DNA from: a virus
Reading direction: 5' to 3' (one strand)
Length of the DNA stretch: 64,000 nucleotides
UHGV virus genome: UHGV-0371537
The notes below the pieces were generated by a model. That model saw nothing but the letters and a program-made list of their open reading frames with translations, had not been told where the DNA came from and searched no databases. The position numbers were made by a program, and so were the translations under genes. Below, piece by piece: positions 25,864 through 27,057 of the stretch (its first letter is position 1; every line of letters starts with the position of its first letter).

Positions 25864-27057
25864 TCAGGAAGGGGTGAAGTCGTTTACAGGAACTGTTTCA
25901 GGGATAGCCAGCTCAGGGCATGCGGCCTTCATTGGCTCGATATACGGCTTGCTGCCCACAATCCAGAACAGAGTGTTCTCGTTGAGCAGCTCTGGCTTGT
26001 GTTGCTGGACCCAGGTCATGACCTTACCTTCATAACGAGGATGCAGTTCGATATCACCCCACTGGTAGTCCATCAGGTCATTGTAACGAACCCAATTGGT
26101 CGTGTGAAGATCCCAATGGTGTACCTCGAAGCGAGGAAGCGTTATCTCTGGCTCATCCTTCTGCCTGATACCACTTAGGAGGCCAGCCAGCGAAACGCTC
26201 TTAGAGGCATGCTGAAGCTCCTTCTTGCCGTGCACATAGTCTGGGTTGTCGTGATAACGACGAGTGAAGTCTGTGATATGCGGTAGATTGGCCTGTTTGC
26301 CGATGATGCGCAGGCGGCTCTCAATAAAGTCCAGGCGGTTCGGACCGATGCCGATCAGATACACACGCTTCAGGTTAGGCTTCGGATGCATCGCCAGCCC
26401 AGTCAGGATGCTTGTGCATGAGTTGCATGAGCCAGCCGGGATGATCAGATCCGTGATATGGTCCGGGATGTTGGCAACCTGCTCGCCGCCCAGCATATGG
26501 AAGCCTGCGATGCGTTCAGGGGAATGCAGGGTGTGATCCAGGGTAATACCATATTCCAGGTAGTACGCCTTTGGATTCACCTGCTCGATGAGCTTCTTGC
26601 AGCGCGGCTGGATCGTGCTGTTGTAACCCGAGCCGACGAAGTTGAACTCACTGCCGAACCAGGCGCTCATCTCAACCATGCCATGGTTCATGCAAGTGGT
26701 TGGTTTGGTCGCGCCGAGTACAGTGGTTGTCTTGCCGCCGAAGTGCCGAGAGACTGCCGTCGCCATAGGGGACTGCGGACTACCAACGACAGTACCGTGG
26801 ATGATGTCAGGGGAGCCTCCGGCCTTCAGGTGCTCAACCATGAGCCAGATGGCCTGACGGAGTTTGCTGCCGTTGATGCCCTGCTGACCATTTGCGTAAT
26901 TGGACAGCGGTGCAAAGTAATCTTCACGCTTGAACCATACCTGCTGGTTGGTTTCGGGATTGGCAACGAGTTCGCAAGGGGTGTGCTTGTAGAGATAGTC
27001 TTCCCAGTGGACCAGGTCGCGGTCGAGGGAAAGGGTATCGAAGATTGACTTGTTCAT
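25864..27057 (-). CDS. PLP-dependent enzyme, fold type II (ACC deaminase / Trp synthase beta-like)
   Basis: 397 aa; GINGSKLRQ resembles the GGNK-x-RKL Schiff-base lysine motif; Gly/Ser-rich PAGSCNSCTS phosphate-loop-like segment. Confidence 0.6.
   Translation of the reverse strand: MNKSIFDTLSLDRDLVHWEDYLYKHTPCELVANPETNQQVWFKREDYFAPLSNYANGQQGINGSKLRQAIWLMVEHLKAGGSPDIIHGTVVGSPQSPMATAVSRHFGGKTTTVLGATKPTTCMNHGMVEMSAWFGSEFNFVGSGYNSTIQPRCKKLIEQVNPKAYYLEYGITLDHTLHSPERIAGFHMLGGEQVANIPDHITDLIIPAGSCNSCTSILTGLAMHPKPNLKRVYLIGIGPNRLDFIESRLRIIGKQANLPHITDFTRRYHDNPDYVHGKKELQHASKSVSLAGLLSGIRQKDEPEITLPRFEVHHWDLHTTNWVRYNDLMDYQWGDIELHPRYEGKVMTWVQQHKPELLNENTLFWIVGSKPYIEPMKAACPELAIPETVPVNDFTPS

Follow-up and report, generated by a model that had tools for sequence, protein, structure and literature searches.

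The gene at positions 25864..27057, on the minus strand, of UHGV virus genome UHGV-0371537 was studied within a stretch of 64,000 nucleotides (the window), which belongs to a ViI-like phage of the Ackermannviridae. It very probably codes for the orthologue of gp226 of Salmonella phage ViI (NC_015296), that is, for a fold-type II enzyme dependent on pyridoxal phosphate (PLP) whose substrate is polymeric phage DNA rather than a free amino acid, an O-serinyl-thymidine (DNA) decarboxylase. The open reading frame (ORF) starts with ATG, codes for 397 residues and is preceded on the same strand by a Shine-Dalgarno sequence, AGGAG, at 27065..27069, located 7 nucleotides 5' of the ATG at 27057. Among other options, the first-pass annotation of this DNA had suggested that, together with a nearby kinase cluster, the enzyme could perform the decarboxylation step of a DNA-base hypermodification. 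This is the published function of gp226, to which the protein is 93% identical. Having been established between 2018 and 2021, it is correct and already known, so that the present gene adds one more orthologue. What is possibly new is a matter of organization, not of gene function. A short peptide, carried by a disordered insertion of the enzyme, resembles the C-terminal tail of the phage DNA polymerase. This similarity, read from sequences, suggests that the decarboxylase and the whole pathway to which it belongs may be tethered to a gp45-type sliding clamp, a proposal that we consider evenly balanced between true and false.

Orthology with gp226 (YP_004327553, also named Vi01_182 or orf00226) extends over 394 residues without a gap (residues 3-396). 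Catalytic and invariant positions are all identical; elsewhere the two proteins differ by conservative substitutions scattered along the sequence. Gene order is the same in ViI, with an ORF of unknown function upstream, then the PLP gene, then a gene similar to those of ADP-ribosyltransferases, and with DNA polymerase, gp243 and gp247 close by. The viral protein from ViI differs by 27 extra residues placed after its initial Met-Asn, as in some of its relatives, which the window protein lacks. As a result, lysine K65 of the window protein corresponds to K92 of gp226, with which it aligns, and published residue numbers are not directly transferable. When window positions 27049-27057 were compared with ViI and with contigs L014, L015, L027 and L031, other versions of this variable segment were seen at the same place, of about 14 residues and of a different sequence, in L014 and L027. 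At the DNA level, the 20-32 kb region of the window is 93-95% identical to Salmonella phage SP-9-14, Shigella phage Ag3 and others. The view that such enzymes are rare in phages was overstated: a tblastn search retrieved 348 phage records, with a nearly full-length match in 344. Nearly all come from Ackermannviridae of Salmonella, Klebsiella, Escherichia, Dickeya, Serratia, Shigella and Erwinia, to which about 60 Vibrio phages must be added, at approximately 52% identity. Likewise, 429 protein clusters match the decarboxylase at E<=1e-3, and PHROG 3650, still labelled 'unknown function', matches it over its full length (E=8.5e-241).

The biochemistry of the family was worked out with phage ViI. 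Lysates containing gp67, gp160, gp226, gp243 and gp247 convert DNA made with 5-hydroxymethyl-deoxyuridine (5-hmdU) into DNA containing 5-(2-aminoethoxy)methyl-deoxyuridine (5-NeOmdU) (PMC5889632). Purified gp226 is yellow, with an absorbance peak at 410-425 nm that is the spectrum of PLP, and when it is left out of the lysate mix a product 44 u heavier builds up (Lee et al., NAR 2021; PMC8989533). In this pathway, gp247 joins free serine to DNA via its side-chain oxygen, forming O-serinyl-thymidine (O-SerT). gp226 then converts O-SerT in DNA into a 301-u nucleoside, with loss of one 13C from labelled serine. The product being 5-NeOmdU, gp226 is a PLP-dependent decarboxylase, for which the authors put forward K92 as the Schiff-base lysine (PMC8989533). 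The modified base has been found in phages ViI, CBA120, CBA6 and 1.255.O (PMC5889632), and also in phiHS2. In ViI-like phages it takes the place of about 40% of the thymidines, and many restriction enzymes are blocked (PMC5889632, PMC6449724).

The protein bears the marks of a fold-type II enzyme. Its translation includes NGQQGINGSKLRQAIW, where the motif GINGSKLRQ (residues 60-68; 26854..26880, like all positions given for this protein on the minus strand) had been likened, from the letters alone, to the Schiff-base lysine region of PLP enzymes. The likeness was borne out. The Pfam PALP profile matches residues 24-249 at profile positions 6-202 of 295, a significant match (E=1.5e-7) whose score, 31.5 bits, is nevertheless below the 35-bit gathering score, and a precomputed PF00291 match is present in many homologues. 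With the single sequence as query, phmmer retrieved chance matches alone from the PDB (E > 0.6) and was uninformative, so that a family profile was needed to reach relatives of solved structure. Built on an alignment of 39 homologues, down to approximately 41% identity, this profile matches ACC deaminase (1rqx, E=2.6e-6; 1f2d, E=1.4e-5) and D-cysteine desulfhydrase (E=2e-3). These are the nearest solved structures, and searches of the PDB found none for any gp226-type enzyme. A structure model supports the two-domain fold typical of the tryptophan synthase beta subunit.

The alignment displays 33 invariant columns, among them K43, R44, D46, N62, G63, K65, R67, S93, P94, Q95, H105, G209, N212, Y342, E343 and K345. 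K65 (codon 26863-26865), the predicted Schiff-base lysine, is invariant in 39 of the 39 sequences, so that the refuting condition set in the first pass, a GSK lysine that varies among homologues, does not hold. It aligns with Lys51 of ACC deaminase 1rqx, as well as with K36 of gp52 from Pseudomonas phage M6. The preceding FKRED (residues 42-46; 26920..26934), with F42, K43, R44 and D46 invariant, aligns with AKRED of the same deaminase. S93-P94-Q95 (26773..26781), all three invariant, corresponds to S78-N79-Q80, the loop that holds the substrate carboxylate and the catalytic serine. G209-S-C-N-S213 (26419..26433) is presumably the glycine-rich loop binding the phosphate of PLP, aligned as it is with the CVTGST loop of 1f2d; two of its residues, G209 and N212, never vary, and S210 and S213 are at least 90% conserved. 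Finally, Y342-E343-G-K345 (26023..26034), with Y342, E343 and K345 invariant, is the counterpart of Y294-E295-G-K (HPtYEgK aligned with DPVYEGK). The profile alignment pairs K65, S93, Q95, Y342, E343 and K345 with K51, S78, Q80, Y294, E295 and K297 of ACC deaminase, and the catalytic set shared by this enzyme and D-cysteine desulfhydrase (Lys51, Ser78, Tyr294 and Glu295, the latter a Thr in the desulfhydrase) is accounted for. In ACC deaminase the tyrosine stacks on PLP and serves as a base, Ser78 and Asn79 hold the substrate carboxylate, and the pyridine N1 forms a hydrogen bond with the glutamate next to that tyrosine, a feature not shared by most fold-type II enzymes (PMC3344862). In the phage enzyme an acidic partner of N1 would strengthen the electron sink for decarboxylation, and the invariant change from Asn to Pro in the carboxylate loop (S-N-Q in ACC deaminase, S-P-Q here) may help reorient the carboxylate.

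The enzyme thus shares the scaffold of ACC deaminase and D-cysteine desulfhydrase. It is not filed as either because its orthologue decarboxylates DNA-linked serine. Compared with ACC deaminase, D-cysteine desulfhydrase and PH0054 (PDB 1rqx, 1f2d, 4d8t-4d9f, 1j0a), identity is only 14-19%. These enzymes catalyse ring opening or beta-elimination, whereas decarboxylation of a residue borne by double-stranded DNA is at stake here; with respect to the ACC deaminase group, the phage enzyme has an insertion of approximately 40-55 residues and some 30 extra C-terminal residues. A closer functional counterpart is gp52 of phage M6 (YP_001294560), the PLP-dependent decarboxylase of C-alpha-glycinyl-thymidine in the 5-NedU pathway (PMC8989533), which carries out the same type of reaction on an amino acid attached to DNA. 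The two enzymes have the lysine motif KRED..APL...SK.R in common, and gp52 has a tyrosine-acidic pair, FYD aligned with RYE, that is Tyr-Asp where the present family keeps Tyr-Glu. By contrast, it is only 278 residues long, has no variable insertion, and its substrate first requires a radical-SAM isomerase. A BLASTP comparison of the two proteins was not significant and hhalign gave a probability of 27% (E=6.5e-4); this likeness, at the level of fold and motif, was not used for orthology.

The partners expected from ViI are encoded in the same window, and the kinase cluster of the first-pass annotation is real. As in ViI, the pathway would begin with replication of phage DNA with 5-hmdU. The 5-hmdU DNA kinase, orthologue of gp243 (17835..18749, minus; Pfam HMUD2, E=8.6e-158; 85% identity), would then phosphorylate the hydroxymethyl group, and the serine:DNA transferase, orthologue of gp247 (15890..17116, minus; Pfam ADDT, E=4.7e-60; 90% identity), would swap the phosphate for the side-chain oxygen of serine, making O-serinyl-thymidine. 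Last, the decarboxylase would take the serine carboxylate off as CO2, leaving 5-NeOmdU and protecting the genome from restriction enzymes. The conserved residues suggest how this could proceed. K65 would first hold PLP as an internal aldimine; the external aldimine would form once the serine on the DNA, through its free alpha-amine, has taken the place of K65. On departure of CO2 the carbanion would be stabilized by the pyridine ring, with N1 hydrogen-bonded to E343 (compare Glu295 of ACC deaminase), and the alpha-carbon would be reprotonated, plausibly by Y342 or K65, before K65 frees the product. Kinase and transferase genes lie 7-10 kb from the PLP gene. They are separated from it, in ViI likewise, by a family-B, T4 gp43-like DNA polymerase (20922..23921, minus; Pfam DNA_pol_B and DNA_pol_B_exo1) and by an NT5C-like nucleotidase. 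The latter has an NT5C-type 5'-deoxynucleotidase domain at 19742-20560 (minus), between polymerase and kinase (Pfam E=4.5e-8), and, judging from this domain, may help shape the pools of dTTP and 5-hm-dUTP.

Several observations weigh against this assignment. For the present protein and phage, it rests on 93% identity and synteny; the PALP score is sub-threshold, the single-sequence search reached no PDB relative, and NCBIfam has no model for the decarboxylase (nor for either of its neighbours). Homologues of ViI gp67, gp160 and the dUMP hydroxymethylase were not found among the window ORFs scanned. ViI synteny places gp67, gp160 and the thyA-like hydroxymethylase outside the window, the thyA-like gene and gp67 of ViI lying at 37-39 kb. 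Chemistry is a further concern. Decarboxylation is atypical for fold-type II enzymes, where beta-elimination and beta-replacement are usual, and an O-alkyl-serine is also a plausible substrate for beta-elimination, O-serinyl-thymidine being an O-substituted serine, so that the basis of reaction specificity is inferred. One could therefore imagine that the enzyme recognizes the same DNA conjugate, or another adduct, and applies a different PLP chemistry, such as a reversing beta-elimination or a deamination, the base then differing from 5-NeOmdU; the window phage is, after all, not identical to ViI, with DNA identity of about 93-95% to its best matches. We regard this as most unlikely: catalytic and invariant positions are those of gp226, the serine-selecting transferase shares 90% identity with gp247, and 5-NeOmdU is known from several genera of Ackermannviridae.

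The option of an enzyme altering host amino-acid metabolism, also raised in the first pass, found no support. An ACC deaminase, D-cysteine desulfhydrase or threonine/serine ammonia-lyase acting on free amino acids would agree with the nearest solved structures, and several GenBank phage records indeed read 'threonine ammonia lyase' or 'threonine dehydratase'. However, these names are automatic labels at the level of the fold, identity to such enzymes is only 14-19%, the 93%-identical orthologue works on DNA-linked serine and, in distant lineages, the gene lies beside or near genes for amino-acid:DNA transferases and DNA kinases. On orthologue activity, gene context and low identity, threonine dehydratase was rejected, and we give hardly any credence to a free amino acid as the substrate. 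Gene context speaks for decarboxylation on DNA. In contig L003 (10001-15213), the gene of a homologue with 44% identity runs into an overlapping ADDT gene, followed by a 258-residue ORF and by a 713-residue fusion of a radical-SAM protein with a GT2 glycosyltransferase. In L004 and L005, a 39%-identical homologue comes directly after a radical-SAM gene, with ParB-like genes flanking it, the order in L004 (8393-12460) being ParB-like, radical SAM, PLP, two small ORFs (83 and 181 residues) and ParB-like. Among the neighbours of the L004 homologue, the radical-SAM protein gave the only Pfam match. This pairing of radical SAM and PLP genes recalls gp53-gp52 of M6, and the ParB genes recall ParB-dependent thymine dioxygenases (PMC13229309). 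Many metagenomic T4-like contigs (L012, L040-L050, L082) possess an operon TET/JBP-PLP-ADDT-P-loop-kinase, in several cases beside gp45/gp44/gp62. In L012 (8656-16217), gp45, gp44 and gp62 begin about 1.2 kb downstream of it, an arrangement that suggests post-replicative formation of 5-hmU followed by hypermodification. The PLP family is thus consistently found within clusters for thymidine hypermodification, and this favours the same role throughout the family.

A variable insertion at residues ~270-310 (26128..26250, minus), absent from ACC deaminase and D-cysteine desulfhydrase, sets the phage enzyme apart. Mostly disordered in the structure model, it is the sole poorly modelled part of the protein, with a predicted local distance difference test score (pLDDT) <50 at residues 282-289, 297-299 and 302-305 and a small helix predicted at 290-294, and its length varies from 0 to approximately 50 residues among homologues. 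It contains SKSVSLAGLLSGIRQK, with the core SVSLAGLL at residues 287-294, and within it lies a candidate sliding-clamp-binding peptide, S287-VSLAGLLSGIRQ-K300 (26158..26199, minus). The loop peptide KSVSLAGLLSGIRQK can be set beside three C-terminal tails encoded in the window, all on the minus strand. These are the tail of the polymerase, RRVNLLAMMQKKKG (20925-20966), that of the kinase, AASRSLLDLMKKG (17838-17876), ending SRSLLDLMKKG, and that of the transferase, SNSVNLMALLKR (15893-15928), ending SVNLMALLKR. The four share the form S-V-N/S-L-L/M-x-L/M-L/M, followed by basic residues.

This pattern, written as a regular expression after the window sequences had been seen, was then met in ViI, where gp160 ends with GSVNLLDRLKKPE and gp67 begins with MSYSLKGLLKRP. 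A scan of the ViI proteome (236 ORFs, 49.8 k residues) gave six matches, namely the polymerase and five hypermodification proteins, against 0.09 in shuffled sequences. A position-specific scoring matrix (PSSM), partly circular as it derives from the same motif instances, shows a wide score gap beneath these matches. With a looser pattern a single ORF is added, Vi01_049c, of 70 residues. This protein (ViI 30355-30567, locus L006) ends DKVNLLSLMRK and has a PSSM score of 26.5, the next non-pathway match standing at 16.3.

In other lineages the peptide changes, and it does so jointly. In Vibrio phage D503 (46 ORFs in 41 kb), LW ends are present only in the polymerase (KARKLW), the kinase (KTKKLW), the transferase (KTRKLW) and Pplase1 (STKRLW), and the sole further match to [KR][KR]L[WF] is the loop of the PLP homologue, KTRRLFGG. 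In T4-like contigs, TET/JBP and transferase tails read ..SLESFFE, ..SLEGFFV and ..TLERFFG, and the PLP loops DIDRFFDG, GLTSFFTD and SILDFFQDD. Such versions look like the tail of T4 gp43, EKASLDFLFG. At eight representative loci, seven T4-like contigs and L062, pairs of hydrophobic or aromatic residues were counted in the last four positions: they occur in 15 of the 24 pathway proteins and in 5 of the 135 other proteins (Fisher p=3.7e-11, for a pattern defined post hoc). Several transferase and kinase tails in contigs of the L003/L004 type end QSLF or AQTTLF, resembling the bacterial beta-clamp motif.

An internal peptide of this kind has a precedent. T4 DNA ligase binds the clamp gp45 via an LDFLF peptide located in a flexible internal loop, EPEGLDFLFD, to be compared with the tail of gp43, EKASLDFLFG (PMC6212786). 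Here the loop SVSLAGLLSG stands in the same relation to the polymerase tail RVNLLAMMQK. Common to both enzymes is a short hydrophobic peptide similar to the polymerase tail, placed in a flexible loop within the catalytic domain. They differ in that binding by the ligase was proven by size-exclusion chromatography, isothermal titration calorimetry and a crystal structure, whereas the decarboxylase motif, known from sequence, is lineage-specific and more basic. Clamp-binding tails are carried by gp43, gp33 and gp55, and any of these motifs can stand in for another (PMC2988020). ViI encodes the clamp, gp45 (= Vi01_135c), together with gp44 and gp62, and the gp45 homologue lies outside the window. 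Should the peptide bind the clamp, the binding sites would be C-terminal in gp243, gp247 and gp160, N-terminal in gp67 and within an internal loop in the decarboxylase, and thymidine hypermodification would proceed on the clamp, behind the replication fork. A comparable clamp proposal exists for the alpha-glucosyltransferase of T4, and it is disputed.

The shared peptide could well have another meaning. It might bind a different partner, such as the single-stranded DNA-binding protein (SSB) or the helicase, act as an amphipathic membrane-targeting tail, or reflect a chance likeness, and to this set of explanations we concede a probability somewhat short of even. Clamp binding is suggested by sequence patterns defined after the sequences had been seen; the basic and hydrophobic character of the peptide is like that of membrane-targeting tails, for example in MinD; and many distant lineages have no such motif at all. 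The tails of ViI gp33, gp55, ligase and RNase H show no clear match to the motif, which weakens the clamp reading without refuting it, a point to be set beside the variation of clamp-partner tails among T4-family phages (PMC2988020). Lee et al. do not mention clamps (PMC8989533), and literature searches found no report of clamp tethering for this pathway. Against a non-clamp partner, the motif ends a family-B polymerase precisely where gp43 of T4 and RB69 has its gp45-binding tail (PMC6212786, PMC2988020), and its presence in gp160 and gp67 was foreseen before these two proteins had been looked at. In addition, all partners switch together to ..[KR][KR]LW in the Vibrio phage, and in T4-like phages whose operon abuts gp45/44/62 the motif becomes the T4-like SLExFF.

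The surroundings of the gene add further features, all on the minus strand. An RNA hairpin at 27057..27111, with a 12-bp stem and a 6-bp outer stem, buries the Shine-Dalgarno sequence and the A of the start codon. Its stability, -25.1 kcal/mol (z=-7.1), was matched by 0 of 200 shuffled sequences; it is present as a single copy in the window and recurs almost unchanged in five related phage contigs, which vary little among themselves. Smaller inverted repeats are found at the starts of neighbouring genes, at 25821-25859 and 27804-27833. Downstream, 39 nucleotides away, the ORF at 25360..25824 was described at first pass as a PARP-like gene targeted to the capsid. The ADP-ribosyltransferase part of this description is supported by a match to Pfam ART-PolyVal (E=2.2e-10; 41.9 bits for a cut-off of 31.2), with a weak match to DUF3990. 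The pair is kept in ViI (Vi01_182/183) and both genes are probably co-transcribed. A scan of positions 24500-28400 for promoters and terminators found no more sites than in shuffled sequence, and any transcription unit is proposed from gene spacing.

Upstream, at 27127..27780, a protein of 217 residues (PHROG 4050, no Pfam match) has a hydrophobic and basic C-terminal tail, FMDNMMKFLRLFKK, also written KKPTFMDNMMKFLRLFKK; the tails of its homologues read SFFRRLMDFLTK in ViI and TFAQRLLGFLSVFRR in an Erwinia phage. Judging by this tail, the protein might bind the same partner as the decarboxylase. At 24866-25324 is encoded a highly acidic protein of 152 residues (PHROG 3852) that ends GDDDDFWEE, and its Erwinia-phage homologue keeps DDDFW near the C-terminus. 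Acidic tails with an aromatic residue are reminiscent of SSB-type interaction tails. Further away, at 29403-30752, a 449-residue protein of the trimeric-autotransporter adhesin type begins like a signal peptide, is repetitive in its middle region and has a YadA-like membrane-anchor domain (Pfam E=1.1e-13). It is encoded inside the phage tRNA region, flanked by five tRNA genes (Ser-GCT, Tyr-GTA, Asn-GTT, Arg-TCT and Met-CAT; 28341-31126), and GC content drops to 0.44 at 30-32 kb.

With 5-NeOmdU as its product, the pathway counters restriction and may also affect other host defences, BREX being among those considered (PMC5889632, PMC6449724). If the pathway proves to be tethered to the clamp, this would explain how a four-step chemistry performed on polymeric DNA keeps pace with replication, and it would suggest a reason why modification is partial. 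A copy of the polymerase tail would then become a simple sequence signature with which to recognize further phage DNA-modifying enzymes, and hypermodification could be engineered or inhibited through it.

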